A DNA stretch of 64,000 bases from Isurus oxyrinchus (lineage: Eukaryota). Shown here in pieces: positions 2,946 through 63,149 of this stretch. The DNA lies in contig JANJGN010000210.1 of the NCBI GenBank assembly GCA_026770705.1, positions 434,001 through 498,000 of the forward strand, written 5' to 3'. The notes under the pieces are model-generated. The model did not search any database. It saw only the letters and a program-made list of their open reading frames with translations, and was not told where the DNA came from. The position numbers and the translations under genes were made by a program. Position 1 is the stretch's first letter; each line of letters begins with the position of its first letter.

Positions 2946-3973
2946 GATTCAGTGATTTAATAATTCTATATATTTTCTACTTGAGCAACAAAAACATCCT
3001 TAAATAGGAAGGAGGTGAGAAAATGGAACAACTGAAGGAATGTCTTTAACAGAATAAATGGACAAGAAACACGAAATTTACTCTTTGATGGCACGTGGGC
3101 GTCGCTAGCAAGGCCAGCGTTTGTTGCCTATCTCTAATTGCCCTTGCATTGAGTGCCTTGCTGGGCCATTTGCGAGGGAGTTTAAGGGTCGACCATATTG
3201 TAGTGGCTCTGCCCAGCCATTGATTCAATGGTGAAATTGGCCAATCATGGTGCTGTGACTGATAGAAAGTGTTGGGGGTGTCGTCGATTCCAAGGGGCAA
3301 ACTTTCATCATATTTGTGAAAAGTGCATTCAACAATGTTTGTGGGTCGTAACCTCTACATAAATGCAGTCGGTTATTAAGATAGAACGGCCTTATTTTAA
3401 GAGGGATCCCTGTTGAGGTACGCATGTTCTCACCCACTGCAGCGCGGCCCGTGAACACAAAGGGACCTTTCCCAGCTGCGGTAATTGTGGGAGATGCTGA
3501 CCTCCATGGAAGGATCATGGGTGGAGTGAATCCAAACCCAAACTACCCTCAGCTGGGAACTGCCCGGTCTCTTGCGTGTTCCCTGGAGCGGAGGGAATCT
3601 CTCAGTCGATTGTATCCCGAATGCTGGAAATCACAGGAGATGGTGAAGGTTTATCAAGTCAAACGAGGAAAAACGGATTCAACAGCAAAAGGCAAAGAAA
3701 CTAATTTGCCGTTATCTGAGGTAAAAGGCAGCAATAAATTCACCTCAGATTACAAATCGGTACATTATGAATTTTTACAGGAAAAGGGAGATGAGAATGT
3801 GGAATAATTTCATAAACTATGTTTGAAGGCGAATTGGACAGGAGAAGATACCAAGAATTATAAGCAGCAAGAAGGAAATGCAGATTTAATCAGCTTAATC
3901 ACTTCATTCTGTAAAATTTTAAGAGCCACTGGAAATATATTCATGAACAATATGTGTACTCCAAATTTCCATG

Positions 3974-4355
3974 CACTGTGTATCTCCATGTCTCTGCAAT
4001 CCCACGATGTGCAGGATTTTGCACAGCTCTCTCCGTGTTCTGTATCACTGTGTGTCTGTAATCCCACCATGTTCAGGTTTTTGTACAGCTCTCTCCGTGC
4101 TCTGTATCACTGTGAAATCCCACCATGTTAAATTTTTGTACAGCGCCCTCCCGTGCTCTGTACCACTGTATGTCTGTAATCCCACCATGTTCAGGTTTTT
4201 GTACAGCTCTCTCCGTGCTCTGTATCACTGTGTGCCTCTAATCCCACCATGTTAAATTGTTGCACAGCGCCCTCCGTGCTCTGTATCACTGTGTGTCTGT
4301 GATCTCACCATGTTCAGGTTTTTGTACGGCTCTTTCCGTGCTCTGTATCACTGTG
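3974..4355 (-). repeat. Tandem array of six 23-spacer RSS (~56-62 bp unit)
   Basis: Minus-strand CACAGTG heptamers at 4349-4355, 4287-4293, 4226-4232, 4108-4114, 4046-4052, a degenerate one at 4164-4170 and an orphan at 3974-3980. Perfect ACAAAAACC nonamers at 4317-4325, 4194-4202, 4076-4084, each exactly 23 bp from its heptamer. Confidence 0.92.
4317..4355 (-). promoter_or_regulatory. 23-RSS of the supporting V-delta
   Basis: CACAGTG-atacagagcacggaaagagccgt(23)-ACAAAAACC directly after YYCALSRRR. Confidence 0.95.
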
Positions 4356-4661
4356 CTCTGCGCCGACTCAGTGCACAATAATACACAACGGAGTCGCTTA
4401 GTTGTAGTTTGGAGATATTTAACCGGCTGATTTTCTCGGCAGAATCGATAGAAGCAGAAATTCTCTCCCCGGCAGCATTTTCTTTATTCTCCTCTCCTGA
4501 AGTGTGTCTCTGAAGCAGGTATTCCGGAGCCTGTCCTGGGGACTGACGGTACCAGTGTACTGTGTACTGACAGATGCTTGAATATTCACAGCTTAAAGTA
4601 ACGGTGTCACCGGCAGCAGAGGTTTGTAAAGGTGGATTCTGGAATATCAGGAGACTGGAAC
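4356..4661 (-). CDS. TCR-delta V segment, leaderless 'supporting' V-delta of the NAR-TCR type
   Basis: Acceptor acccttcag| (phase 1); SSLLIFQNPP...TVTLSC EYSSICQY TVHWYRQSPGQAPEYLL...LQLSDSVVYYCALS. Canonical Cys/Trp/Cys plus a non-canonical CDR1 Cys, a 23-RSS, and no recognisable hydrophobic leader exon upstream. Confidence 0.9.
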
Positions 4662-6360
4662 CTGAAGGGTGAAAAATGAACATTTTGTGTTTGTTTAGCT
4701 ACTGCTGATATGGGGAATTTGTCAATCGCGCGAACAGCTTTGTGTTTTTTACCTTGATTTGAAGCCTGTTTGAACGCTGCTCATTGTTACTGAAATATGA
4801 TCAACTGGGGAATGAGGTGATATTTTCTCTTCCATAGCGAATTCCTCCGATCAGGACTTCACTATCTGAATGGGTTTTGGGAACAGATTCAATAGTAACT
4901 TTCAAACGGGCGATGTATCTGTTCTGAAGCAGAAAAATGCAGGAATATGGGGAATATGCATGAGTGGTGGGAACAATTGGATTACACTTTTAAAGGGACT
5001 GCACCTACACGATGGGCCGGATGTCATCCTTCCGCGCTGTATGGTTCTATTATGTATATTAGATTTGTTTTGATTTTCCCCGCTGAGAGACAAACCCGAG
5101 GGAACTTCTTATTAACAGTGAAACAGTCAGTTTCCAAAAACTATTTGTCTGACAGTGACCTAGATATAACGCATCACTGCGCACAGCAAAATCCAACAGA
5201 ATGCGATTGCAATTCGTCAGCACCAATCGGGTCAAACAGATAGTGAATATCGATGGTGAAATGTCAACCATTAGCTTCAGTTTCACACTTCTCAGGAGTT
5301 TCCATCTGCCTTTGGGTCTATTAGTTTATTTTTTTCGATCAATCTATGTTTCCACATTTCTCTTTAAGTTGAAATATTTACAGTTAGTTTCATTTTATTT
5401 CTACATTTACTTTGCACTGTTTATACGTCTTGCAATCGTGGGAACTTGTCCTAAACTCTCTCAGTTGTCGGTTGGGTTCAGCGTGTTCAGTTTCCGCAGT
5501 GGTTTTACTGTTACTCACTGGGAACTGCCTCTTCCGGCTCTCTGATGATTTCAATTCTTTCCGCCCATTGACTGATTCTCTCCACTTTCTCTGGGCGGAG
5601 TTTTCTCTAAATTTTTCATTGTACTCAATCTGCAGGAGAGGGATCAGCCATTTGGCACAGTGAATTATGTTGTGGGTATACTCCACAGCAGTCTCCCCAA
5701 CCCGAAACCTAATTGACCATTTCCATCCATATTTCTTTCTCCCTCCTGTATTTTCAGCCTTCCCATAAATCTATCAATAACGTCTGCTCCAACTACTCAG
5801 TGTAGCATCAAGTTCCACATTCTGACGGTTTTAGTGTACATTTTTCTTCTTAATGTCTTTGTTCTCTTAGTGACGATCTGATATTAATGTCCTACTGATC
5901 TCGGCTCATCCATCAATATACAGCTGCCACACACGCACTCCATTAAACCCGTTCATAATTTTAAAGATTTCTCTGAATTCTCATTCCGGTTCTCTGTTTT
6001 CCAGATATAAGTGAACCAGACTTTTCAATCATTCCAGAGAGATGTGCAGTTTTGCTGATTCCTTTTCTCAGACATTTAAAAAATCTTTGCGAAGAATCTT
6101 ACAAATAGAAGCAGGAATGGCCATAACAACTTACAAACCCGCTCCGATGTTCAATAATATCGTGGATGATCATCAACGTAAGCATCACATTCCCATATTC
6201 CTAGATTCTTTTAATAACCAAAAATCTATGGAACAGTCCCATTGATCCACTGAGTATACGCAGCTCTCTGAACTATAGAATGCAAGAGGTTTACAACACC
6301 CACCCGTATCTGCCATGTCAGCCGTTGAGAATGAGATCTGCTCACATTCCTCTAAACTAC

Positions 6361-8480: not shown

Positions 8481-8825
8481 CAGCTGTGACAGTCACCTCT
8501 GTCCCGGATCCGTCTGCATAACCATCTTTCCAAACGGAACCACATCCATATTTGTACTGAGCTTTACAGTAATAGGTGGCCGTGTCTTCAACGCTCAGAT
8601 CCCGAATTTCCAGCGAAAAATTATTTACTGCTTTATTTATCGACACAACAAATCTCCCTTCGCTGGGGATCCGCTTCCACTCAGTGCCTGTCTGGGTTTT
8701 TCTGAAGAAATGTCCATCCTGTAAACGATGAGAATTACCATGGAATACACAGGTAATGATGAGGGACTGACACTCCTTTCTGGTCACCGCTACCGGGGTC
8801 TGTGTCACTGACTGACTGAAAGAGC
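8481..8825 (-). CDS. Germline-joined NAR-TCR-like V(D)J exon A (345 bp, phase 1-1)
   Basis: Acceptor ctgtttaatttccag|; SFSQSVTQTPVAVTRKECQSLIITC...TATYYCKAQYKYGCGSVWKDGYADGSGTEVTVTA G|gtaagt. No RSS and no stops. Confidence 0.93.
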
Positions 8826-8973
8826 CTGGAAATTAAACAGAGAGAGTTTAATGGGCCATCAGATCCGAAGTACAAAACGCGGCGCAAACGCCAGACAGTG
8901 TCTGTAATTGAGAAGGACTCCGGCAGCTTTAGGTAAAATGCACACAACGTCGATTAGTTAGATTGGTTGCCAC

Positions 8974-14318: not shown

Positions 14319-14666
14319 CGTCAGTGACAGTCAACACCGTCCCTGATCCGAGTTCATAAACATCTTTCGAAACGGTGCTCCCACATCTATATCTGTACTG
14401 AGCTTTACAGAAATAGGTGGCGGTGTCTTCAACTCTCAAATCTCGAATTTCCAACGACAATGTCTTTTTTTCTTTATTCACCGACACAACAAATCTCCCT
14501 CCGCTGGAGATCCACTCCCGCTCTGTCCCGGTCTGGGTTTTTCTGAAGAAACGCCCGCCTTCTAAACTTTGAGAATTACCAGATAAAGCACAGGTGATGG
14601 TGAGAGACTGACACTCCTTCCTGGTCACAGCTGCCGGGGTCTGTGTCACTGACTGACTCAAAGAGC
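14319..14666 (-). CDS. Germline-joined NAR-TCR-like V(D)J exon B (348 bp, phase 1-1)
   Basis: Acceptor ctgtttattttccag|; SLSQSVTQTPAAVTRKECQSLTITC...TATYFCKAQYRYRCGSTVSKDVYELGSGTVLTVTD G|gtaagt. Confidence 0.93.
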
Positions 14667-14813
14667 CTGGAAAATAAACAGAGAGAGTTTAATGGACATT
14701 CAGAGCCGAAACACAGAACGGGCTTAAACCCCAGACAGTGTCTGTAATTGGGATGGACTCCGGCAGCTTTATATTAAATCCATACAATGTCTGTTTGTTT
14801 GACCAGTGCTCAC

Positions 14814-17663: not shown

Positions 17664-17999
17664 CGGCAGTGACGGTCAACAACGTCCCAGGTCCGTCTTC
17701 ATAAGCATCTTTCGAAACGGTGCTCCAACAATTATATCTGTACTGAGATCTACAGTAATAGGTGGCGGTGTCTTCAACTCTCAAATCTCGAATTTCCAGC
17801 GAAAAGGTTTTTTCTGTTTTATTCACCGACACAACAAATCTCTCCCACTCCCATTCTGTCCCGCTCTGGGGTTGTCTGAAGAAATGTCCGCTCACTAAAC
17901 TATGAGAATTACCAGAGAAAACACAGGTGATGGTGAGAGACTGACACTCCTTCCTGGTCACCGCTGCCGGGGTCTGTGTCACTGAGTGACTGAAATGGC
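17664..17999 (-). CDS. Germline-joined NAR-TCR-like V(D)J exon C (336 bp, phase 1-1)
   Basis: Acceptor ctgtttaatttccag|; HFSHSVTQTPAAVTRKECQSLTITC...TATYYCRSQYRYNCWSTVSKDAYEDGPGTLLTVTA G|gtaagt. 12-bp in-frame deletion in the HV2 region. Confidence 0.93.
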
Positions 18000-18145
18000 C
18001 TGGAAATTAAACAGAGAGAGTTTAATGGACATTCAGAGCCGAACCACAGAACGGGGTTAAAACCCCCAGACAGTGTCGGTAATTGGGATGGACTTGGGCA
18101 GCTTTATATTAAATCCACACAATATCTGTTTGTTTAACCGGTACT

Positions 18146-23780: not shown

Positions 23781-24711
23781 CAGACTGGAGCCCATTTCAG
23801 TCCTTTCGTCCATAAACCTCACCCACCTCCCTGGGCTCGGATTGTACTTTGAATGGGCCAGAGATCCTCCATTCCTTTTCTCCTTTTCGATGAATTATTT
23901 ACTCCAGTTTCTAAATGAACATTCCCCCAATTTACAACTTACTATTGTTTCCTTGGTTTCCTGTTCTCCTTTATAAGATTAATGCATCATCCTCACTATC
24001 TCACTGCACTGTGTTGTTTCAATTCACGTAATCAGGGATAGAGATAAATTTCACCAATCCCATCTCTCAAACATCTACATTCAATATAGAGCAGTGTCTG
24101 CAGTTCCAAACTTTCACATTTCGGTCTGAGGGTGGAAAAGGAGGAGAGTGATTGGTTCTATGAAGATAATTGAAGGAAATGGCGGGGACAATGTCATTTA
24201 TTTCAGTCACTGATTGTCCAAAAATAAAATTCCATCTGGACCCACATCAGGATCTCTTATAACTGTGTCACTTATAACATTGTGTCACTCTCCCGTTTTA
24301 CTCTCGGGATTGGTATTGAACGAGCCGCTGCAGGTACCCGAACTGGCCGCAGTTGTGTTGAGTTTATTCACCCGGTACTTCATTCACATTGCACGACTCG
24401 GACTGCAATCTGCTGCCCAGGAGAGAGCTCTGTGACCCCGCTCCCGGGCTCTAAGGGACAGAAAGAGCTCCCTCGGTCACAATTAACACCGGGAGTGGAG
24501 TCCGGAGTGTCGACAATCTGCGCTCATTAAAAGTGATTCAGAGAGTGAGTCTGTGATGTTGATATTGTCCCCGATGTGCCCGTTGAACAAATAATGGGCC
24601 AGAATCCACCAACTCCCACATCCCACCCAAACTCTACTGATATCAATAATAAACTGACGGTGAAAATTACACGGGACAGGCTGTAACCCGGCGGGGTTTG
24701 GAGTCACTTAC

Positions 24712-24769
24712 CGGCTGTGACAGTCACCACTGTCCCGGATCCATCCACATAATCATCTTTATAACTCAC
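24712..24769 (-). CDS. NAR-TCR-like J segment (unrearranged)
   Basis: VSYKDDYVDGSGTVVTVTA G|gtaagt; matches the 3' ends of the joined exons. Confidence 0.93.
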
Positions 24770-24808
24770 CACAGTGACACCGCTCTCAATCTCCCTGGTA
24801 CAACAACC
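24770..24808 (-). promoter_or_regulatory. 23-RSS of J
   Basis: Plus strand CACAGTG 24770-24776, 23 bp, ACAACAACC 24800-24808. Confidence 0.9.
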
Positions 24809-25124
24809 ACCGACACTTCAAACTGGCTGGAGATCATCATCAGACAGTAGGAACTGCCCAACTATTCAACGGATTCAAATAAATAAACAGTATTCAATGG
24901 TTCAAAGTCTCTGTTGAGTCAAACTGTTTTTTGTGAGTCCCTGAGCTCTGAGTAAATGGTCTCGGGAACGAGATGTTCATTTCATATAAACCGAGAAAAA
25001 TATCAAAGAAAGATAACTGAATGGTGGAAATTACAATAAAATGTAACCAGATTTCAGCGATAATAACATCAACACGACAATTCACTATCCGGACCCGGCG
25101 AATTTATATTTAAATTTTTGCAGA

Positions 25125-25200
25125 AGTATTTGTTAAGGTCTCTCCCACTGTGATTTCCCCAGTCACCACCCACACAGTATTACAAGTCAGCATGAAATCC
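25125..25200 (-). other. D segment (25153-25172, TGGGTGGTGACTGGGGAAAT) flanked by 12/12 RSS
   Basis: 3' RSS: CACAGTG (25146-25152), 12 bp, ACAAATACT (25125-25133). 5' RSS: CACAGTA (25173-25179), 12 bp, ATGAAATCC (25192-25200). Frames WVVTGE / GW*LGK / GGDWGN. Confidence 0.88.
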
Positions 25201-25527
25201 CCCGGGTAATTGCTGAGATTTCGGGACATCAGTTAAACAGCGGGGACTGCGGTTACCGGTTCCAGCTGTTAGACCAGGATCACATCTGGTGTTAGGGGTT
25301 TGTAACTGGGATCAGTCATTCCCAATCCCCATTCACTGACACCAATCCTGGGAAAGACATCACCATCTGCGCACACTCGGCATTTATAAAACTCAAGATG
25401 TTAACGGCAATAATCCAATCTAATTATAAACTAGACTGTGGGGCAGACGGTGTGAGGCGGAACTGTGGGGGTTTAACTGCAAATTAACTCCGCTTTTTCG
25501 TTTGTTTCTGTAATAATCTGCAGTGAG

Positions 25528-25565
25528 AGTTTTTGTATCGCGCGAAGGCGAAGCCCATCACTGTG
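25528..25565 (-). promoter_or_regulatory. 22-spacer RSS of the NAR-TCR-like V
   Basis: CACAGTG (25559-25565), 22 bp, ACAAAAACT (25528-25536). Confidence 0.92.
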
Positions 25566-25854
25566 TATGTGTAGTATCTGTACTGAGCTTTACAGTAATA
25601 GGTGGCGGTGTCTTCAACTCTCAGATCTCGAATTTCCAGCGAAAATGTGTTTTCTGCATGATTCACCGACACAATAAACCTCCCCCCGCTGGAGATCCGC
25701 TTCCACTCTGTCCCGGTCTGGGTTTCTTTGAAGAAATGTCCCGTTCGGAAATAATGCCACGAAGCACCGGAGAAAACACAGGTGATGGTGAGAGACTGAC
25801 ACTCCTTCCTGGTCACCGCTGCCGGGGTCTGTGTCACTGACTGACTGAAAGAGC
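25566..25854 (-). CDS. Unrearranged IgNAR-like (NAR-TCR) V segment
   Basis: SFSQSVTQTPAAVTRKECQSLTITCVFSG...GHFFKETQTGTEWKRISSGGRFIVSVN..TFSLEIRDLRVEDTATYYCKAQYRYYT. VNAR-type short FR2/CDR2 region, extra FR1 Cys, RSS follows. Confidence 0.93.
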
Positions 25855-26003
25855 CTGGAAGTTAAAGAGAGAGAGAGTTTAATGGGCATTCAGAACCGAA
25901 CCACAGAACGGGATTAAATCCTGGACAGTGTCTGTAATTGGGATGGACTCGGGCAGCCTGATATTCAATCCACACAATGTCTGTTTGTTTGACCGGTACT
26001 CAC

Positions 26004-39299: not shown

Positions 39300-41120
39300 A
39301 GCACTGTCTCAATCATTTCTGCACCAAACCCTGTCCCTGTTCATATTAAACTTGACCTTTGACTGTATGTATTACACTCAGTGATGTCTCTGATCATATT
39401 ATAACAGGCTGTGTCACAGTTGTTTCTACAATAGCTCAATCTCAGTCAATATACAGGGCAAAGACCATATTACACTATACATTCTCTCAGTTATCACATC
39501 ACTAAACCATGTCTTGGCTAATATGACAATAGTCCATGTCTCAGTTGTTACTGCACTGGTACTTGTCTCTACTTATACGAAACCAGATCATGTTCCTGTT
39601 TACATGTCACGAAGCTCTGTCTCAGTTATTGCACTACTAGACTCTGCCACGTTAATACTAAACTAGGGGATGCCTTGGCAAACACTGCACCAATCTATGT
39701 CTTTGTTTATATCACACGATGCCCTGTCACTGTTATTATTGTATAATACCATGCCTCTATCTTATTGCTGCACTTGCCCACATCTCTGTTTATATTAATC
39801 TAGGCCCTGTGTTGGTAGTTATTGCACGAAGTTCTGTCTCATTTTATATTAGACAACGTCCTGTATCAGATGAAACTGCAGTAGACCCAGTGTCAGTTTC
39901 CTTTCACTAGATCCTGCCTCAGTTATTACTGAACTAGACCATGTTGGTGTTCATATTACACAAGACACTGTCTCAATTATTATTGCACTCAGCACTGCCT
40001 CACTTTTTACTCCACTATATCATGCCTCTGTTTATATTACACTAGATCACTTTTTTGCTTATATTCTGTTAGACCCTATCTCAGTTTATATAACACTCGA
40101 CCCTGTCTCAGTTTATATCACATTAGACCCCGTCTCAGATAATATTATACTGGAGCCCGTCTCGGTTTATATTATACTAGAGCATGTCTTTGTTTACATT
40201 ACAATAGACCCTGTCTCAGTTTATATTACACTAGACCCTGTCTCAGTTTATATTACATTAGATCCCGCCCCAGTCTATATCACACTAGACCCTGTTTCAG
40301 TTTATATTACACTAGACCCTATCTCAGTTTATATTACACTAGACCCTGTCTCAGGTTACATTACACTAGACCCTGTCTCAGTTTATATTACACGAGGCCC
40401 TGGCTCCGTTTATATGACACTAGGCATTGCTTCTGTTTATATTATAATAGGCTCTGTCAATGTTATTTCTGTGTAGACCATGTCTCTGTTTATACTACAC
40501 AAGGCCGAGTCTGTTATTACTGCACTAAACCCTGGCTCAATAATTGCTGATACTAGCCCCAGCCTTCGTTTGTATTACTGTAGATGCTGTGTCAATAATT
40601 GGTGCACTCGGGCCTGTCTCAGCATTACTGCACCAGACCCTGACTTTTTTTATATTGAAATGGATTACGCCTATGGTAATATTACACCAGTTCCTGCCTC
40701 GGTTATTTCAGTGCTTGGCCTCGTCTCAGCTGGCCCTGAATTCGGCTGTGGCTCTGTATTACGTGTGGAAAACCCTCAGTTATTTCTGCTCTCGGCCCTG
40801 TGTCTGTATATACAACGTGAAACCCTGTCTTAGTTTCTGCTGCACTAATCCATACATCTCCTTTTATTACACTCGCCCTGTCCCTGTTCTTATTCCACTA
40901 GATCATGTTTTTGTATGTCTTACACTGTAGGCAATCTGAGTTATTAGTGCACCAGACCCTGTCTAGGGTGTTATTAATCCATGTGTCGGATCAATCATTA
41001 CTGTTCTAGCCCCGAGACAGGATTAATATCAATTGACCCAGTGCTTAGTGCGCTAACCCTGCCTCAGTTATTTCTACGCTTGGCCATGTCTCTGTGATTA
41101 TTGCAGTGGTCAATGTCTCC
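39300..41120 (-). repeat. 27-bp minisatellite (CTAGACCCTGTCTCAGTTTATATTACA), homogeneous core ~40060-40400
   Basis: 27-bp period, e.g. tcagtttata at 40081 and 40108. Orientation is opposite to the 42.3-62 kb array. Confidence 0.9.
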
Positions 41121-41574
41121 AGCTGTGAGTTGGAGAGATAATATTATACACAAAGATGTTGAGGTGGGAATTGTTCCCTGGCGTTGGCCTAAAACGGGCG
41201 GTATTGGATGGCCCGTTCTTTGCAGTACCTGATTGTTATTTTCATTTAGTTTTAGTCAAAGAAATTATAGATCAGATACGGTCAGTTATGTGTGCCGTAT
41301 AGAAAAAAAAATCACGCCTCTTGCTTATACCGCCATTTCTCAAAGATAAATGATGACCTTTACCCGAGTGTTTCAGTATTTAATTTTCTTTTACTCAAAC
41401 TGTCACTGCGGATCATTTAGTGCTGTAAACATTTATTAATAGTATGTTTCGTTGTGTACTTTTGCTTAGAAAGTGATGTCATACTGACACTTTCGTCACT
41501 AAGACGAGCATGTTTATCGCCAAACTCATTTGGTGTCTCCTCTCTCCGTCTGAGGCAGCGTCTAACTCATCGAA

Positions 41575-41725
41575 TCTCTTCTCTCTCTCTCTCTCTCTCT
41601 CTCAACCTTTCTTTCTCTCTCTCTCTCGCTGTCTCTTCACCCACCATCAAACTCCCGCCTTCCACCCCCCCACCCCCCAACCCCCAGCCCCCTTCTCCCC
41701 CGCACTCTCTCTCTCTCTCTCTCTG
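41575..41725 (+). repeat. (CT)n / C-rich simple repeats
   Basis: Direct inspection. Confidence 0.85.
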
Positions 41726-42339
41726 AGACAGTCCCTTATTCATTTTGAATCCCCTGTTATCTATTAACACTCATTGGAGATTTCTTTTCGCAATTTCTCT
41801 TCATTTCTCCTAGTGACAACTTTCAGTTCACTCCTGCCTTCAGTGATGGTGCTCAAATCCAAAACTATGCATTTATTTAAATTGTAGATAGTTTAATACT
41901 GTAAGTATTGATAACCAGTCTGTTGTGTGCATTTGTTTATAAAGTGATGTTAGACTGACGATTTCGTTTCTAAGGTGCTCTATCTGTCTCCGGTGATCAG
42001 TTGGAAAGCGGAGCAAATCACATCCAGAAGAACCAGCAGTTTATTAACAAATGATCACCTCAATATCTCACAGAAGCTCCTCAAAATCTCGAATGTGTGA
42101 TGATTTGTGCAAGTGATGGCAAAAATCAAACTTCACCTACACCTGACATGAGACTAATACACCTGTAATTCTCCAATTTATTATTCCGGTTGATAGGAAG
42201 GATTGAAACTCCTGCTGTTATCCGGAGAATTTCACTATTTCTATGTCCTCTTTTTTTAACTGTTATCTTCACAAATTCCACCACAACCACTCGAATCATG
42301 TTTGAATAGACTGCAGGTTGTATATTCATTGTAATCTTA

Positions 42340-43006
42340 ACGAAAATAAACCAGGGCCTAGTCGAGCATAAACAGACACCGGACCTGGTGTAACATAAGC
42401 AGAGATATGGACTACTGCATTAATAACAGAGACAGTATCTGCTTTAATATAAAAGGAGATATCGGCCAATGAAGTAATAAAAGAGACAAAGCCTGGTGTT
42501 GTATAACCAAGGATATGGGCCCGTGCAGTAATATCAGAGACAGGACCTGGTGTAATATAAACTTAGGTATCGGCTAGTGTAAGTAATAACAGGCACAATA
42601 CCTGGTATAGTACAGACAGAGGCATGTGCTAGTGCGATGATAACACAAATTGGTCCGAGGAGTCAGATCAGCAGAGAAATTGGCTAGTTCAGGAATAAGA
42701 CAGAGGGAGGACTTGGTATAACATTGAATGAACCGATATTTGTGTGAACATTATAACAAAAACACTTTGTATAAAATACCAACTGAAAGAGGTCATGGTG
42801 AAACACTAGCAGAAACAGGGTCAACGTTAACAATATCAGAATCAGGTTACAATTGAAAACTGATCGGCACAAGGTTTTCAGAAATAATGAGAGAGATTTG
42901 CATTAGGATTGAATGACATGTAGGCTGTTCGTGCAACAGAGATAGCGTTTTATACAATGAGATTGGATATAGGGAACAGATTAAAAACGGTAAAGCTCTG
43001 TGTAAT
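42340..43006 (+). repeat. Degenerate 27-bp satellite (also ~26960-27380, ~45170-45440, ~49200-49330, ~50460-50700, ~51410-52200)
   Basis: Recurrent gagacagggcctagtg/taata motifs. Confidence 0.6.
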
Positions 43007-53532: not shown

Positions 53533-54628
53533 ATCCAGATTGATATAAAGTGAGACAGTGCCTCGTGCAGTGCTTACTAATGGAGGGTCTAGATCATCAA
53601 GAACTGAGACAGGGCCTAGTGCAATGCTTACTGATACAGGATCTAGATTTATATGAACTGCGACATGCTCGAGTGCGGTGATTACAGACACAGATCTAGA
53701 TTAATATAAACTGAGATGGGGTCTAGTCCAGTGTTTACTGATATTGGGTCACCGTCAATATAAATTCAGACAATATCCAGGGCAACGATTACTGATACGG
53801 GGTCTAGGTTTATATACACTGAGGCTGGCCATAGTGCAGTGATTACTCATACAGGGCTGAGATAAAAATAAACTAGGACAGGGGGTAGTGCAATGATTAC
53901 TGATACAGGGTGTAGATCAATATAAACAGAGACAGTGTCCTTTGCACTGATTATGATATAGGGTCTAGATCAATATAAACTGAGGCAGTGTTCAGCGCAG
54001 TAATTACTGATACAGGGTCTAGATTAATAAAACTTGTGATGGGGCCAAGTGCAGTGATTACTGTTGTCGGGTCTAGGTTGATATAAACTGGTGCAGGGGA
54101 TAGTGCAGTGATTACTCATAATGGGTCTAGATTAATATAAACTGAGACAGGACCAAGTGCAATTATTACTGATACATGGTCGAGATCAATATAAACTGAG
54201 GCAGTGTCCAGTCGAGTGATTACTGATACAGGTCTTGATTAATATGAACCGAGACAGGGTATAGTGCTGTGATTACTGATACAGGTTCCAGCTTGATATA
54301 AACTGAGACAGGGCATTGTGCAGTGATTATTGATACAGTGTCTAGATAAATATAAACTGGGACAGGGGCTAGTGCAATGATCATTCTTACAGTGTCTGGA
54401 CTAAAATAAACTGAGTCATTCCCTAGTTCTGTCATTATTAAAACAGGTTCTGGACTAATATAAATTGAGTTAAGGCCTAGTGCAGTGATTACTGATACAG
54501 GATACAGATTGATATAAACTGAGGCATGGCATAGTACAGTGATTACTGATACAGGGCTTCGATTAATATAAAATGAGACAGTGTCCATTCACTGATTATG
54601 ATGCAGGGCCAAGATCAATATAAACTGA

Positions 54629-55007
54629 AACAAAAACAAAAATACCTGGAAAAACTCAGCAGGTCTGGCAGCATCTGTGGAGAGGAACACAGTTAACATT
54701 TTGAGTCTGCATGACTCTTCAACAGAACTAAGAAAAAATAGAAAAGGTGTGAAATATAATCTGGTTTTAAGTTGGGAGGTTGGGACAAGAAGAGCTGGAT
54801 AGAGGGCCAGTAATAGGTGGACATAACCAAAAGATATCACAGACAAAAGGACAAAGAGGTGTTAAAGGTGGTGATATTATCTGAAGGAATGTGTTAATTA
54901 TGGGTAGAAAACAGGATGAGCAAGGTACAGATAGCCCTAGTGGGGGTGGGGTGAAGGAATTGAAAAAGGCTAAATGGTAGAGATAAAACAATGGATGGAA
55001 ATATATT
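54629..55007 (-). mobile_element. Penelope 3' terminal fragment in satellite
   Basis: acctggaaaaactcagcaggtctggcagcatc...ggtggtgatattatctgaaggaatgtgttaatt. Confidence 0.8.
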
Positions 55008-58000
55008 TGGGTCTAGTGCCGTGATTACTGATACAGGGTCTAGATTAATAGAACTTGAGACAGGCCAAGTGCAGTGATTACTGCTAGAGGGTTTATATTG
55101 ATATAAACTGATGCTGGGTCTAGTGCAGCGATTACTGACATAGGGTTTAGATCAATATAAACAGAGATGGGAGCAAGTGCAGTGATTACTGATCCAGGGT
55201 CTATATAAGTATATACTGGGATGGGGGCCAATGCAGTGATTACTGATACAGGGTTTGGACTCTTATAAACTGAGGCATTTTCTAGCTCTGTCATTATTCA
55301 TACAGGGTGTGGACTCATATAAACTGAGACAGGGCTGAGTGAAGTGATTACTGATACAGGATCTGGATTGATATAAGAAGAGGCAGGCTATAGTGCAGTG
55401 ATTACTGATATGGGGTCTAGATCAATATAAACTGAGACAGATCATAGTGCAATGATGACTGTTACAGGGTCTAGATGATAAAGACTGAGGCAGGGCATAT
55501 TGCAGGGATTACTGATACAGGGTCTACATTAATGTAAACTGTGACAGAGCCTAGTGCAGTGATTGCTGATACAGGGCCGAGGTAAATATAAAGTAGGACA
55601 GAGGCTAGTGCAGTGATTAATGATACAGGATCAGGATCAATATAAACTGAGGCAGTGTCCATTGCAGTGATTACTGATACAGGGCCTAAATTAATATGAA
55701 CTCAGGCAGGGCCTAATGCAGCGATTACTGATTTAGGGACCAGATTAATATGAACTGAAGCAGGCCATAGTGCAATGATTACTGATACTGGGTGTAGATC
55801 AATATAAACTGAGACAGGGCCCAGTACAGTGATTACTGATACATGGTGTAGATCAATATAAACTGAGACAGGCCCTAGTGCAGTGATTACTGATAGACGG
55901 TCTAGGTTGATATAAAGTGAGGCAGGGCCTAGTGCAGTGATTACCGACACAGGGACTAGAGTAATATAAACTAGGTCAGGGGCTAGTGCAGTGATTAATG
56001 ATATCAATGATACAGGATGAGGATCAATATAATTTGAGACAGTGTCCATTGAAGTGATTACAGTTACAGGGTTTACATCAGTATAAACTGAGATAAGTTC
56101 CACTGATGTGATTAATGATGCAGGGTCTGGATTAATATACCATGAGATAGTGTCTAGTGCAGTGATCACTGATCCAAGGTCTTGATAAATATAAAACTGA
56201 GATAGTGTCTAGTGCTGTGATTACTGATACATGGTCTAGATTAATATGAACTGAGGCACAGACTAGTGTAGCCATTACTGATTTAAAGTCCTAGATTGAA
56301 ATAAACTAAGACAGGGCATATTGCAGTGATTGCTGATACAGGGTCTAAATTATTATAGGCTGGGGCAGGGCATATTGAAGTGATTACTGATACAGGGTCT
56401 AGGTTAATAGAAACTGAGAGAGGGCAAAGTGCAATGATTATAGATTCAGGGTGCAGATTATTATAATCCCAACAGGGACGAGTGCAGTGATTACTGAAAC
56501 AGGGCCTTGATTAATATAAACTGAATCAGGCTTTTGTACAGTAATCACCAACACACGGACTGAATTAACATAACCTGAGACAAGGCCTGGTGCAGTGTTC
56601 ACTGACACAGGGCCCAGATAAATATAACTGAGACAGGGGCTCGGGCAGTGATTACTGCTGCAGGAACTAAATTAATGTAAACTTTGATAGGGCCTAGTGC
56701 AGTGATTACTGATACAGCATCTAGAATGATTTAAAAAAAACTGAGGCAGGGCATAGTGCAGTGATTGCTGATACAGGGTACAGATTTATATAAACTCAGA
56801 CAGGGCCTAGATAAATATAAGCCAGGCCAAGGGCTAGTGCAATGATTAATGATACAGGATCATGATCAATATAAACTGAGACAGTGTCCTTTGCAGTGAT
56901 TACCGATACAAGATCTAGATCAATATTAATGGAGATAGGGCCCAGTGCAGTGATTACTGATAGAGGCTCTGGACTAATATAAACTGAGACAGGGCCTAGT
57001 GCAGAGATTACTGATACAGGGTCTTGATTGTTATAAACTGAGTCAGGGCATTATGCAATGATGACAAATGCAGGCTCTATGTTAATATAAACTGTAACAG
57101 GATCTTGTTCAGTGATTACTGATACAAGGTCTATTGGATATAAACTGAGGGAGGGCATATTGCAGTAATACAGAGCCTAGATCAATATATATGGAGACAG
57201 TGTTCATTGCAGTGATTACTGATGCAGGGTCTTAATTAATAAAAGTGGAGACACTGCCAAGTGCAGTGATTACAGATACAGAGTCTAGGCTGATATAAAC
57301 TGAGGCAGACCATAGTCAGTGGTTACTGATACTGGGTCCAGATAAATTTTAAACTGAGACAGGCTCTAATGCAGAAAGAATTTTTGCAAAGTCTAGATCA
57401 ATAGAAACTGATGCAGGGTCTAATGCAGTGATGATTGATACAGGGTATAGATTAATATAACCTGAGACAGGGCCTGCTGTATTGATTAAAGATACAGGGT
57501 CAAGATTGATAAATACTGAGGCAAGGCATAGTGCAGGGATTACTGATACAGGGTCGAGATTAATCTAAATTGAGACATGGTTTGGTGCAGTGCTTACTGA
57601 TAGAGAATCAGGATCAATATAAACTGAGACAGGGGCCCAGTGCAGTGATTACTGACACAGGGTCTAGCTTAATATAAACTGTGGCAGGGCTCAGTGCAGT
57701 GATTACTGACATTTGGTCTCAATCAATATTAACTCAGACAATGTCCAGTGCAATGATTACTGACCCAGAGCCTAGATTAATAGAAAATGAGGCAGGGTCT
57801 AGTGCAGTGATAACTGATACAGTGCCCAGATCAATATAAACTGAGATAGGTCCAAGTGCAGCGATTACTGATTCAGGGCCCGGATTAATATAAACTGAGA
57901 CAGGGTCCAGTACAGTCATTACTGATACAGGATCTAAATTAATATAAACTGAGACAGGGTCTCGTCCAGTGTTTACTGATACAGTGTCTCAATCAATATA

Positions 58001-60169
58001 AACTCAGACAATGTCGAGTGCACTGATTACTGATACAGGATCTGGATTTATAAAAACTGAGGCATGTTCGTGTGCAGTGATTATAGACACAGGATCTAAC
58101 TTAATATAAACTGAGACAGGTTCTTGTGCAGTAATTACTGATACAGGGTCTCAATCAATATAAACTCAGACAATGTCCAAAGCAGTGATTACTGATACAG
58201 GGCCGAGATAAATATAACTTGTGGCAGGGCCTACTGCAGTGATTACTGATACAGCGTTTAGGTTAACAGAAACTAAGAGAGGGCCAAGTGCAGTGATTGT
58301 AGATTCAGGGTGCAGATTATAATAACCAGAACAGGGACGAGTGCAGTGATTACTGAAACAGGGCCTTGATTAATATAAACTGAGACAGGGTCTTGTACAG
58401 TAATTACTGATACACGGTCTGAACTAACATAAACTGAGACAGGGCCTGGTGAAGTGTTCAATGATATAGGGCCTAGATAAATATAACTGGGACAGGGGCT
58501 CGGGCAGTGATAACTGACACAGGGTCTAGGTTAATATATATTGAGATGGGGCCTAGTGCAGTGATAACTGAAACATGGTCTAGATTCATAAAAAAAAGCT
58601 GAGGCAGGACATAGTGCAGGGATTAATGATAAAGGGACTCGGCTAATATCAAGTGAGACAGAGTCTAGTGCAGAGATAACAGATGTGGGACCACGATCAA
58701 CATCAACTGAGATAGCTTCTACTGTGGTGAATCCTGATACAGGGTCTCAATCAATATAAACTCAATGTGCAATGCAGTGATTACTGATACAGAGCCAAGA
58801 TAAATATGAAATGAGGCAGGGCCTACTGCAGTGATTACTGATACAGGGTCTAGGTTAATAGAAACTGAGAGAGGGCCAAGTGCAGTGATTATAGATTCAG
58901 TGTGCAGTTTATTATAACCAGAACAGGGACGAGTGCAGTGATTACTGAAACAGGGCCTTGATTAATATAAACTGAGACAGGCTCTTCTATAATAATTACA
59001 AATACACTGTCTGAACTAACATAAACTGAGAAAGGGCCTGGCAAAGTGTTAATTGATATAGGGCCTAGATAAATATAACTGGGATGAGGCTCGGGCAGTG
59101 ATAACTGATACAGGGTCTAGATTGATAAAAAAAAAACCTGAGGCAGGACATAGTGCAGGGATTACTGATACCGGGCCGAGATTAATATAAACTCAGAGAG
59201 GGTCAAGTGCAGTGATTACTGGTATAAGGTTCAAATTGATATAAAATGACATAGGGTCTACTGCAGTGATTACGGATATAGGGTCTAGACTGATATGAAC
59301 TGAGACAAGGCCTGGTGCCGTGATTTGTGTTACAGGGTTGGATGCATATAAAATGGGACAGGGCCTAGTGCAGTGATTACAGGCACAGGCTTTAGATTAA
59401 TTGAAACTGAGAAACAGTCCAGTGCAGTGCTTTTAGGTTCAAGGTGCAAATTATTAATACCAGAACAGGGTTGAGTGCAATGATTACTGAAACAGGGTCT
59501 TGATTAATATAAACTGAGACAGGCTCTTGTGCAGTAATTACTAATGCAGGGTCTGAACCAACATAAACTGAGACAGGGCCTGGTGAAATGTTCACTGGTA
59601 CAGTGCCTAGATAAATACAACTGGGACAGGAGCTCTTGCAGTGATGACTGCTGCAGGGACTAAATTAATATAAACTGAGGCTGGATCTAGTGCAGTGATT
59701 ACTAATAAAGGGACTAGACTAATATAAAGTGCGACAGAATTTAGTGCAGAGATAACTGATGCGGGGTCAAGATCAATATAAACTGAGACAGGGTCTGTTG
59801 CAATGATTACTGATACAGGGTCTAGATCAAAGTCAACTGAGACAATGTCCATTGCAGTGATTACTGATCCAGAGTCTTAACTGATAAAAACTGAGACAGG
59901 GCCTAGTGCAGTAAGTAATGTTACAGGGTCTAGATTAATATAAACTGAGAGAGCCTCAAGTACAGAGGTTACAGATACAAGGTCTAGATTATTATATTCT
60001 GAGACAGATCTAGTGTGGAGACTACTGATACATGGTTTAGCTCAATATAAACTGTGGCAGGGCACAGTGCAGTGATTACTGATGCTCTAAAGTAATGTAA
60101 GGAAGACAAGGTCTAGTACGGTGATTACTGATACAGGGTCTAGATTGATAAAAACTGAGGCAGGGAAAA

Positions 60170-61272
60170 ATATAATTCTAAAATTGGCTTAGTTGTTGGA
60201 GAGAGAGGGTGATGACAGAAGGACACTTTATTAACTGGAAGCCAGTGTCCAGTCATGTACCACAGGGATCTGTGCTGGGTACCCCATTATTTATTATTTA
60301 TATAAACAAAAGTAGATGCCTACATGTGGGGTAGGATTAGTAAGTTTGTGGAGGACACAAAGATTGACCGGTTGGTTAACAGTGATGTTGAGTGCTTTGG
60401 GCTACAGGAAGATATAGATGGAATGGTCAAATGGGCAGATAAGTGGCAAATAGAATTTAGCACTGAAAAGTGTGAGGTGATACACTTTGGAAGGAGTAAT
60501 TTGACTAGGAAGTATTCAATGAATGGGATGACACTAGGAAGTTCTGAGGAACAAAGGGACCTTGGTGTGTGTGTCCATAGGTCTCTGAAGGCAGAGGGGC
60601 ATGTTTGTCGGGTGGTGAAAAAGGCATATGGGACACTTGCCTTTATCAATCAAGGCATAGATTACAAAAGTAGGGAGGCCATATTGGACTTGTATAGAAC
60701 CTTGGTGAGGTCACAGCTGGAGTACAGTATGCAGTTCTGGTCGCCAGATTATAGGAAGGATGTGATGCACTGGAGACGATGCAGAGGAGATTCACCGGGA
60801 TGTTGCCTGGTATGAAACATTTAAGTTATGAAGAGAGGTTGGATAGACTTGGGTTGTTTTCAGTGGAGCAGAGAAGACTGAGGGGAGACCTGATCGAGGT
60901 GTACAAGATTATGAGGGGCGTGGTCAGGGTGGATAGGGAGCAGCTGTTGTCCTTAGTTGAAGGGTCAGTCACAAGGAGACATAAGTTCAAGGTGAGGGGC
61001 AGTAGGTTTAGGGGGCTTTTGAGGAAAAACTTTTTTACCCAGAGGGTGGTGACAGTCTGGAATGCACTGCCTGGGAGGGTAGTGGAGGTGGGTTGCCTTA
61101 CATCCTTTGAAAAGTACCTGGATGAGCACTTGGCATGTCATAAAATTCAAGGCTATGGACCAAGTGCTGGTAAATGGGGTTAGGCAGGTAGGTCAGGTGT
61201 TTTTCACGTGTCGGTGCAGACTCAATGGGCCAAAGGCCCTCTTCTGTACTGTGTGATTCTGTGATTCTGTGA
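60170..61272 (+). mobile_element. CR1 LINE 3' portion
   Basis: PQGSVLG, ISKFVEDTKI, WADKWQIEF, QRDLGVCVHRSLK, LRGDLIEVYKIMRG; (ATTCTGTG)n tail. Confidence 0.92.
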
Positions 61273-63149
61273 TAATATAAACTGAAATTACCGATAGAAG
61301 TCTAGATCAATATCAAGGGAGACAGCGTCTAGTGCAGTGATTACTGGCACAGAATCTAGATTAATACAAACTGTGACAGGGCTGAGTGCTGTGATTACTG
61401 ACACAGGGACGAGATTATTATAAACTAGGACAGGGGCTAGTTACTGATACAGGATCAGGATCAATATAATCTGAGACAGTGTCCTTTCCAATGATTAATG
61501 ATAAAGGGTCTGGACTAATATACACTGTATCAGGGCCAAGACCAGTCATTACTAATACAGATTCAGGATTAATAGAAACTAAGAGAGGGTCCAGTGCAGT
61601 ATTTACTGATACATGGTCCTGATCAATATAAGCTCAGACAATGTCCAGTGCAGTCATTACTGATACAGGGTCTGGATTAATAAAAACTGAGACAGGCCTA
61701 GTGCAGTGGTTACTGATGCAGGGTGTAGGTTAATATAAACCCAGACAATGTCCAGTGCAGAGATGACTGATACATGGTCTAGATTAATGTAAACTGAGAC
61801 AGGGTCCACTGCAGTTATTAATGATTCAGGGTCTAAATTAATATAAACTGGGACTGTGTCTAGTGCATTGATTCCTGATATATGGTCTGGACCAGAATAA
61901 ACTGAGACAGGGCCAAGTGCAAGAATTACTTCATCATTGATGCCCATATCCTAAGAACGAATTAAAACACTGCAAAATACTACAGATTCTGGAAATCAAA
62001 AGCAGGGCAAAAAATAACCACTCAGCAGGTCAGTGGGCATCAATAGAAAGAGAAACAGGTCAAACGTTCAGGCCAATGACAGGTGCAAAATCTCCCTTGG
62101 TACCAATCTATAGAGCAGGACTGTTCTCCCCACTATCCTAGTCCAGTATTCATTCTTCAACTAAAATCACATATTATCTCATCATTTTTCGCAGGTCTAT
62201 TCATGGGAGCTTGCTGTGCACAAATCACCGGATGGATTTCCAATATTACAGCAGTGACTAAACTTCAACAAATGTACATCAACGAATTTCAAGGGCTTTA
62301 GGATGTCCTGGGGTCATAAGCAGCATTCTATAAATGTAAATTCTTCCTAAATGTTAACATTTTAAAATGCTAGTTGTGATATGTTGAAAACTCTGAGATT
62401 AATATGATTATAGGTCGCTCCTCTGGCTGCTGTTTTAAATTGTCCATTTTAATCGGTTAAATCTTCCAACAAATTGACAATGAGTGTAATCCCAGCCTGT
62501 TCAAATATTCATCATTGATTGTGACAGTAGAACTTACAGAATTGAATTATTAATTTAAATGCATTTTTAATTATTTGAAATAAATAACATCTGTTCTAAT
62601 GGATGTTGAAAATGTTTCTATTAATTTTATACCAACTGTCAATATTCTTAAAATAAACCCTTGTTTTGAGTTGAAACCAATCAATAAGTGTCTATGTTTA
62701 TCTGGTTTTGCTGCCATGAACACTTCATTGAAGTCAGTTTATGTAAATGAACACAGAAATAGAAGTCCCAGATTAGATTCTGGAGACACAAAAACACAGC
62801 AATAGAGTCAAACATGCAAATACATCAACCGATTTCAGTAGCAATTGTTTTTGGGCATTTTTAAAATCAGTTATATGAGAATTATGTCACGATGATATCT
62901 ATGTTTAGAATTAAGTAAGATTCCCACTTATCATGAAATATAATGTCATGGCAAATGTGTTTGGAGGGATGTCCTGTATCCTCTCTCTCTCTCTCTCTCT
63001 CTCTTTCTCCTCTCTGGTACTTTGTCTTGTCTCTCCAACATTGGTCACTGTCTTTACTCCACAACATGAAGTCAATGTCTAGCCAATATATTCTCTCAGA
63101 CCGATTCATACACTTCAAACTAAATTGATCTAATGAAATGGATTATAAT

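Follow-up and report, generated by a model that had tools for sequence, protein, structure and literature searches.

Purifying selection on the heptamer and nonamer of the recombination signals (RSSs) behind the supporting V-delta family of Isurus oxyrinchus is confined to the V-proximal unit, and the distal units of the tandem array that follows it change at the neutral rate. We are inclined, with some reserve, to regard this array as an ancient minisatellite built from the 23-RSS of the supporting V-delta itself; unequal exchange likely renews it, and it has likely been tolerated and not selected for. Its distal signals are probably cuttable decoys. Coordinates given without further label refer to the window, that is, the whole stretch of 64,000 nucleotides that was analysed.

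Array architecture behind the supporting V-delta

The window array lies on the minus strand and consists of six head-to-tail units of about 62 bp, each formed by a 23-RSS and a linker of about 23 bp. The units start at 4355, 4293, 4232, 4170, 4114 and 4052 and are 62, 61, 62, 56, 62 and 62 bp long, respectively; TRF reported a period of 62 bp with 6.0 copies and also a period of 118 bp with 2.8 copies. With up to two mismatches allowed, five RSS matches were found in the whole window, four of which fall in the array (shuffle mean 0.10, 100 shuffles). The coordinates, TRF and the shuffle control thus bear out the six tandem 23-RSS units described by the sequence-only reading, and RSS matching confirmed the perfect heptamer-23-nonamer that it had seen in units 1, 3 and 5.

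Unit 1 (4294..4355) comprises a perfect 23-RSS (4317-4355) and a 23-bp linker, and is the productive, selectively constrained signal. Unit 2 (4233..4293) has a consensus heptamer, a spacer of 23 bp and a nonamer with four mismatches. Unit 3 (4171..4232), with a perfect 23-RSS at 4194-4232, equals the majority unit of the family, and unit 5 (4053..4114; perfect 23-RSS at 4076-4114) is identical to it. Unit 6 (3991..4052) has a consensus heptamer, a spacer of 23 bp and two nonamer mismatches. Weaker nonamers had been attributed to units 2, 4 and 6; this holds for units 2 and 6, but in unit 4 (4115..4170) the heptamer also begins with T and has lost CAC, the spacer measures 24 bp and the linker is shortened. 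Because of the lost CAC and the 24-bp spacer, the RSS of unit 4 is predicted to be dead, beyond merely weak. When the distal units are judged by a CAC heptamer, a 23-bp spacer and an A-rich nonamer, units 3 and 5 are perfect, unit 6 is near, unit 2 is poor and unit 4 falls outside. The duplication of a dimer of ~120 bp, also proposed earlier, agrees with units 1-2 and 3-4, since units 2 and 4 are each other's nearest (7 differences) and units 3 and 5 are identical; however, unit 6 differs from units 2 and 4 at 12 and 15 positions, and hence belongs to a different type.

A decayed terminal half-unit, the seventh (~3945..3990, minus strand), retains a heptamer and part of a spacer, with a heptamer-like word at 3974-3980; it is likely a relic of the seed duplication, homology between terminal half-unit classes being judged by eye. 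As translation confirmed, the V frame runs into a stop at the TGA overlapping the first heptamer, which supports the earlier proposal that use of a distal RSS would be non-productive yet leave the proximal RSSs in place. Much of the window's right part is occupied by long arrays of a 27/54-bp minisatellite (39834-42606 and 53537-61921).

The supporting V-delta and its NAR-TCR cassette

The V exon (4356..4661, minus strand) has an open frame, no leader, a splice acceptor at 4662-4663 and an extra cysteine in CDR1, placed in the translation five residues past the first canonical cysteine. The absence of a leader and the presence of a CDR1 cysteine are features described for NAR-TCR-associated V-delta in the available passages of PMC1845163. 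No leader exon was found in the 3.8 kb upstream of the window V, nor in 45 family loci, by a scan that recovered leaders for 14 of 28 control Vs and two of four NAR Vs, and whose sensitivity is therefore about half per locus. The nearest named proteins are Carcharodon models (94-95% identity) in which a NAR V-J is spliced to the V, and a NAR-TCR J is likewise spliced onto the start of the supporting-V exon in an RNA-run contig of a relative.

Upstream of the supporting V, and also on the minus strand, the cassette map shows three NAR V(D)J exons that are joined in the germline, as well as one unrearranged set of NAR V, D and J. The joined exon nearest to the supporting V (8481..8830) is open from V to J, with a splice donor and no RSS, and those at 14319..14670 and 17664..18010 have an open frame and a splice donor. 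The unrearranged set (24700..25860) has a V RSS with a 22-bp spacer at 25565, a D with 12/12 RSSs at 25152-25173 and a J with a 23-RSS at 24770. The NAR-TCR V RSS spacer measured 22 bp in all 22 readable loci (L121-L150; in the window 25528-25565, minus strand), and the NAR D has a 12-RSS on both sides. Two Carcharodon models (P0002 and P0003) have joined CDR3s near-identical to those of the window's germline-joined exons, and for this reason the germline joins are probably common to more than one species.

The RNA-run contigs contained two V junctions, both at the end of unit 1 (4356 and 4362). The first, from a family member (one contig, depth 2, another organism), joins the V end, a D core and the first J-delta, and the second has a D-like word at its end; no joint was listed at any distal heptamer in these contigs, an observation that weighs neither way. 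Four RNA runs were considered, one of which contributed nothing, and no RNA data set was listed for the stretch itself. Taken together, the missing leader, the CDR1 cysteine, the NAR V-D-J upstream, the splice and the V-D-J-delta join support the identification as a NAR-TCR supporting V-delta. In two further RNA-run contigs (X19), a hydrophobic leader-like stretch, and not a NAR J, is spliced to the start of a family V exon (window 4660; agreement 0.63), hinting that some family members may be used with a leader.

C-delta, one D-delta with 12/23 RSSs and 11-13 J-delta per haplotype or locus copy were found on C26 and C242, the D-delta being single in each copy (L168 and L169; C26:29,928,776 and C242:590,146). 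D and C-delta have diverged strongly between the two copies (68 and 72% against a common query). The nearby flanks of the copies are ~88-92% identical, and the copies correspond either to very divergent haplotypes or to two loci. The supporting-V family spans ~17 Mb (C26:23.1-40.2 Mb) on both sides of C-delta; about half of its members are inverted, so many would join by inversion.

Distribution of the array in the genome and in other sharks

The family set comprised 77 distinct loci, namely the first 30 from DNA and protein searches and the remaining C26 matches; it leaves out further matches on small contigs, which may correspond to C26 haplotypes, and two loci end before the RSS, giving 75 loci counted. 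Two to ten full units were present in 55 of these, one unit plus a half-unit in 5, and one unit in 15, whereas for C26 alone (n=52) the numbers were 39 (at least two full units), 3 and 10; 21 of the 30 clades average at least two units. A second array-type unit occurred in none of 28 loci of other V families, where a general RSS scan placed a single RSS in 22, one RSS plus a weak second match in 1 and none in 2, with 3 unplaced. The NAR V loci gave the same picture (0 of the 22 readable ones arrayed; 30 loci examined). The unit junction had 131 matches in the genome, and all 100 listed ones lie on C26 at 23-39 Mb or on six small contigs of the locus; a metagenome scan for this junction returned 0 matches.

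Fifteen additional junction sites were recovered, one behind a whole family V, 11 behind a V remnant of at most 82 bases and three without a V. An 11-locus clade (L171-L173, L176, L178-L184) shares a deletion of the V after ~82 bases, fused in the middle of the RSS spacer; 2-5 units come next, followed in most loci by a GATA-type microsatellite. At L073 and L074, an insertion of ~125 bp splits a linker within the array, and the loose end was likewise seen in the DNA runs of another organism.

Of 57 homologous proteins, 12 have models that continue past the V end and were compared with shuffles, an analysis that is at the protein level and not DNA. The translated models contained a second unit above the shuffles in seven cases (three of four from Hemiscyllium, two of two from Rhincodon, one from Pristiophorus with seven residues, and one ENA record with five units); in two it was not significant (P0040, P=0.25; P0038 from Callorhinchus, P=0.063) and three were too short. 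Judged from these models, the array is present in Lamniformes, Orectolobiformes and a sawshark, and hence appears to be old, the splits among these groups dating to ~200 million years ago or more. The array is thus not private, contrary to part of the refuting condition named in the sequence-only reading; it is family-wide (55/75 loci) and common to several shark orders. The comparison across other supporting V-deltas and species that had been suggested gave one to ten full units among family loci and a second unit in the models of other sharks.

It is hardly conceivable, given these data, that the array is an assembly artefact or a private recent expansion. Copy number does vary among close copies, and repeats can be mis-assembled, but the units show structured differences (0-15), 55 loci are arrayed, and contigs of four DNA runs from two organisms, though short and not spanning the array, cover the window array with common variant units; the models of other species point the same way. 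As regards the existence of the array, the artefact reading is refuted.

Turnover of unit number

Nearest-neighbour loci differed in the number of full units in 1 of 23 pairs below 1% divergence, 6 of 13 at 1-3%, 1 of 4 at 3-6% and 8 of 13 at greater divergence. The window array has six units, and its two closest copies, each ~2% diverged from it, have 7 and 10. The array therefore shows what defines a VNTR, namely head-to-tail units of 10-100 bp in variable number, the variation being between paralogues or haplotypes. A single full RSS was found behind 13 of the 51 intact Vs. Intact Vs and broken Vs were alike in unit number (P=0.27 for all loci and 0.88 for C26), which was also unrelated to the distance from D-delta (rho -0.08, n=52; 0.12 on 30 clades). 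An apparent excess of units on the C26 minus strand (P=0.015) was discarded, as it rests on a clade of nine near-identical loci.

Terminal half-units numbered 25 in the set of 77 loci. Under the minisatellite reading, an early partial duplication of the RSS, the linker, a second heptamer and part of a spacer would have created the direct repeat; the Hemiscyllium models seem to end in a half-unit, judged by eye, which would fit such a seed. Unequal crossover or slippage may then lengthen and shorten the stack, with unit 1, which is under selection, as the source of new copies; the distal units would resemble good signals in the absence of selection because they are copies of it. Birth-and-death among dozens of cassettes would keep the array from vanishing everywhere.

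Selection on heptamer and nonamer

Changes were tallied by two methods, of which one followed a spanning tree of 166 unique full units and the other applied parsimony to an ML tree built from 135 non-terminal units; expected changes were derived, by base, from non-CpG spacer and linker sites. In unit 1, heptamer and nonamer together showed 14 changes versus 30.8 expected (spanning tree) and 4 versus 15.8 (ML/parsimony), whereas the distal units showed 85 versus 73.8 and 50 versus 53.6. The observed/expected ratio was thus 0.25-0.45 for unit 1 and 0.93-1.15 for the distal units, the 95% intervals of the latter (0.92-1.42 and 0.69-1.23) ignoring error in the null. The contrast between unit 1 and the distal units was significant (Fisher P=0.0017) and remained so when only C26 (P=0.008) or only loci with intact Vs (P=0.003) were considered; behind broken Vs it was absent (P=0.31). 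Since constraint is detected at unit 1, the test has power, and the distal signals are not individually conserved. These tests concern short units related by exchange in one genome, with a null taken from spacer and linker, and a distal ratio as low as ~0.7 is compatible with the data; redundant copies under selection at the level of the array would each be under weak constraint.

A simple rule for RAG competence was passed by 129 of the 183 distal units, 42 of which are perfect, as would be expected if they are recent copies. Distal indels were fewer in the spacer than in the linker (4 versus 14, P=0.03), but the addition of nonamer indels raised P to 0.57. An excess of change in the distal CAC was not significant (23 versus 15.9 expected, P=0.056; 11 versus 10.1 by the second method). 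The lower share of competent distal units behind intact Vs (70/113) than behind broken ones (59/70; P=0.0014) was not retained, because the counts are non-independent and the tree ratios are alike (1.01 and 1.08).

We consider it unlikely that the whole stack has been selected because several 23-RSSs raise RAG capture at the leaderless V, with redundancy hiding the constraint on each unit; lacking a leader, such a V probably also lacks its own promoter, and its recombination has to be coordinated with that of its NAR V. The confinement of arrays to the leaderless family (0/28 other V loci; 0/22 readable NAR V loci of 30) is in keeping with this explanation, but a single origin explains it equally well. 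The restriction of all 100 listed junction matches, out of 131, to the locus, the long persistence of the array and the 129/183 competent-looking distal units are also in its favour, and the unit heptamer with the first two spacer bases ranks near the top in a mammalian-RAG 12-RSS assay, as far as the accessible part of PMC9723617 goes. However, there is no distal constraint, no extra units are found at intact or D-delta-distant Vs, 13/51 intact Vs manage with one full RSS, and RAG captured on a distal unit would cut there.

Of the four readings offered from the sequence, neutral minisatellite expansion is the one that these results fit best, on account of the lack of distal constraint, the labile number and the 13/51 intact Vs with a single RSS. 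The near-neutral distal ratios, both RNA junctions at unit 1 and the change in number of an array without a V, described below, also favour a tolerated repeat. Against this, the structure has lasted across shark orders although collapse to one unit should be a dead end, 55/75 loci are still arrayed with 129/183 distal units competent and 42 perfect, indels in distal units are rarer in the spacer than in the linker as long as nonamer indels are not counted (4 vs 14, P=0.03), and there are only two RNA junctions, both from contigs.

A germline signal joint in a V-less array

At C26:29,964,820 (L185:5820) and C242:380,224 (L186), we found a cassette in which the NAR D 12-RSS is fused to the first heptamer of an array. 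The NAR V and its RSS come first, followed by V-D spacer DNA, the D 5' 12-RSS, directly next to it the array heptamer, and then the flank normally found downstream. The heptamers abut exactly head to head, and the cassette lacks the D, the J and the supporting V. A genome search found the junction at these two sites only. A signal joint is defined by the exact fusion of RSSs (PMC2193153, in the passages available), and the exact head-to-head fusion therefore shows that, on at least one occasion in the germline, RAG has cut some array 23-RSS, with the 12-RSS of the NAR D as its partner. The best V-bearing relative in the set is only 74-80% identical over the flank, so the cut may have fallen at unit 1 or at a distal unit. 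The flanks of the two copies are 88-92% identical, and the copies have three and six full units; the stack therefore kept changing with no V to serve. A further V-less array (L175/L187, C26:29,872,902) has one unit and a half-unit, and its first heptamer stands behind GTG; the DNA upstream contains no recognisable RSS or cassette part, and this may be a cryptic signal joint or chance.

On the tolerated-minisatellite reading, unit 1 would make the productive V-D-J join, and a distal cut would give a dead join that nevertheless leaves proximal 23-RSSs for joining to any of the 11-13 J-delta 12-RSSs. Decoy use might be cheap enough to be tolerated because the proximal 23-RSS can rescue the V through J-delta.

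A selected role for the same events seems to us distinctly improbable. In this scheme, RAG coming from D-delta would meet the distal units first, which would lower or delay productive use of the supporting V, and rescue by the proximal RSS straight to J-delta would give D-less, short supporting CDR3s. RAG scanning is linear and orientation-dependent in mouse Igh (bioRxiv 10.1101/2020.06.30.181222, as given in the part available), but its extension to sharks is an analogy from mouse; the nearest C26 copy shares the orientation of D-delta and sits 8.8 Mb upstream of it, but about half of the C26 members are inverted relative to D-delta. The single D-delta, the many J-delta and a germline signal joint showing that an array RSS is cleavable suit the scheme, as does the D-less supporting V of platypus TCR-mu (PMC3457774, seen in excerpt). 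However, selection for decoys should conserve the distal signals, and none is conserved; moreover, the one readable RNA junction holds a D-type core and the other ends in a D-like word.

The linker and its likeness to D-delta

The linker resembles the D-delta core, with eight common bases and 11 in a four-G variant, in register with the edge of the D 5' heptamer (empirical P 0.013, and 0.0004-0.0014; 0.0004-0.02 over all comparisons, post hoc). It is very doubtful that the linker, with a reversed cryptic heptamer on one side and the following 23-RSS on the other, is a D-delta-like segment that can be joined to V as an extra D. The reversed heptamer falls in the top quartile of an assay table (PMC9723617, in the portion available), but it has no nonamer at 12 or 23 bp, it was not detected as a reverse RSS, and the linker is thus not flanked by two complete RSSs. 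The four-G form occurs in only 8/258 full units, and the word is common in nearby DNA. A class of 50-bp units has lost exactly the stretch from the reversed heptamer-like word to the next heptamer, which leaves the signal-joint-like, head-to-head arrangement that excision of such a stub would produce, but this class goes back to one inherited event. The D-like part of the linker is under-changed (5 versus 13.2 expected in unit 1; 32 versus 42.8 in the distal units), the conservation of the linker end being taken from non-terminal units and being, in the spanning-tree count, partly a masking artefact. One RNA junction fits a linker variant at 13/14 bases by eye, but a D with added N bases explains it equally well, and the Ds of the two locus copies are strongly different. 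A germline RAG origin of D segments has been proposed (PMC2193153, available in part). The D-like linker is therefore a lead, not a finding.

A combined proposal, in which the ladder is a selected RAG device of D-delta-like stub and 23-RSS units, produced by germline RAG, that lets the promoterless V capture RAG and rearrange stepwise and so tunes the timing of the supporting-domain join and its CDR3 length, is in our judgement quite unlikely. Its steps would be a first cut at a distal unit, followed by proximal rescue to J, or by use of the linker as an extra D.

Significance and comparison with known systems

A single RSS for each V segment is nearly the rule in antigen-receptor loci. Dozens of Vs with 1 to 10 stacked signals, in competition for one D-delta, amount to a natural dose series for RAG choice, which bears on RAG scanning from the D and on the coordination of the two NAR-TCR joins; as distal and proximal use leave different junctions, the question is testable from thymocyte DNA. 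The inherited signal joint represents another type of germline product of RAG, here in a shark TCR locus, and shows a route by which cassettes are lost. Should the stack be no more than tolerated, annotation based on RSSs counts too many signals here, and the long life of a signal repeat is no proof of function.

No description of tandem RSSs behind a V was found in a full-text literature search, which lacked the main NAR-TCR papers. In the parts available, an RSS stack was not found in PMC12227049, PMC5931798, PMC3457774, PMC9248892, PMC7615758, PMC1845163, PMC9723617, PMC2193153 or bioRxiv 2020.06.30.181222, and a search of the elephant-shark supplement (PMC3964593) gave no match.

The gene itself belongs to NAR-TCR, a known system, and what is new here is that selection is limited to the proximal unit. 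The NAR-TCR cassette of cartilaginous fishes was reportedly described by Criscitiello et al. in 2006. As presented in passages of PMC1845163 and PMC5931798, such a cassette likewise has a leadered NAR V with D and J upstream of a leaderless supporting V with a CDR1 cysteine, the NAR J being spliced onto the V and the V joined to D and J-delta; those passages mention no repeated RSS, whereas here the supporting V is followed by 1-10 tandem 23-RSSs, and three of the upstream NAR V(D)J exons are joined in the germline. Units 1, 3 and 5 match exactly the consensus of the canonical V 23-RSS (PMC2193153, in part), but one such signal per V is usual, as in the control Vs that were read, and the distal units have no coding segment beside them.

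Germline RAG rearrangement in sharks is said to have been reported by Lee et al. in 2000. The joined Ig clusters and the hybrid joint (PMC2193153, as excerpted) are likewise inherited RAG joins; the present case differs in being a chromosomal signal joint, formed by the 12-RSS of a NAR-TCR D and the 23-RSS of a supporting-V array, through which a cassette lost its D, J and V. DeltaRec and the kappa-deleting element are single conserved RSSs without a coding segment, whose non-productive use deletes the locus. The distal units resemble them in being orphan, non-productive RSSs, but are many, variable and unconstrained, and so do not belong to that class. Minisatellites and VNTRs turn over by unequal exchange, and the array shares with them units of 50-63 bp, higher-order dimers, a labile number and a decayed distal end; here, however, the unit is a working recombinase site, and the repeat is anchored on one selected copy in dozens of paralogues.
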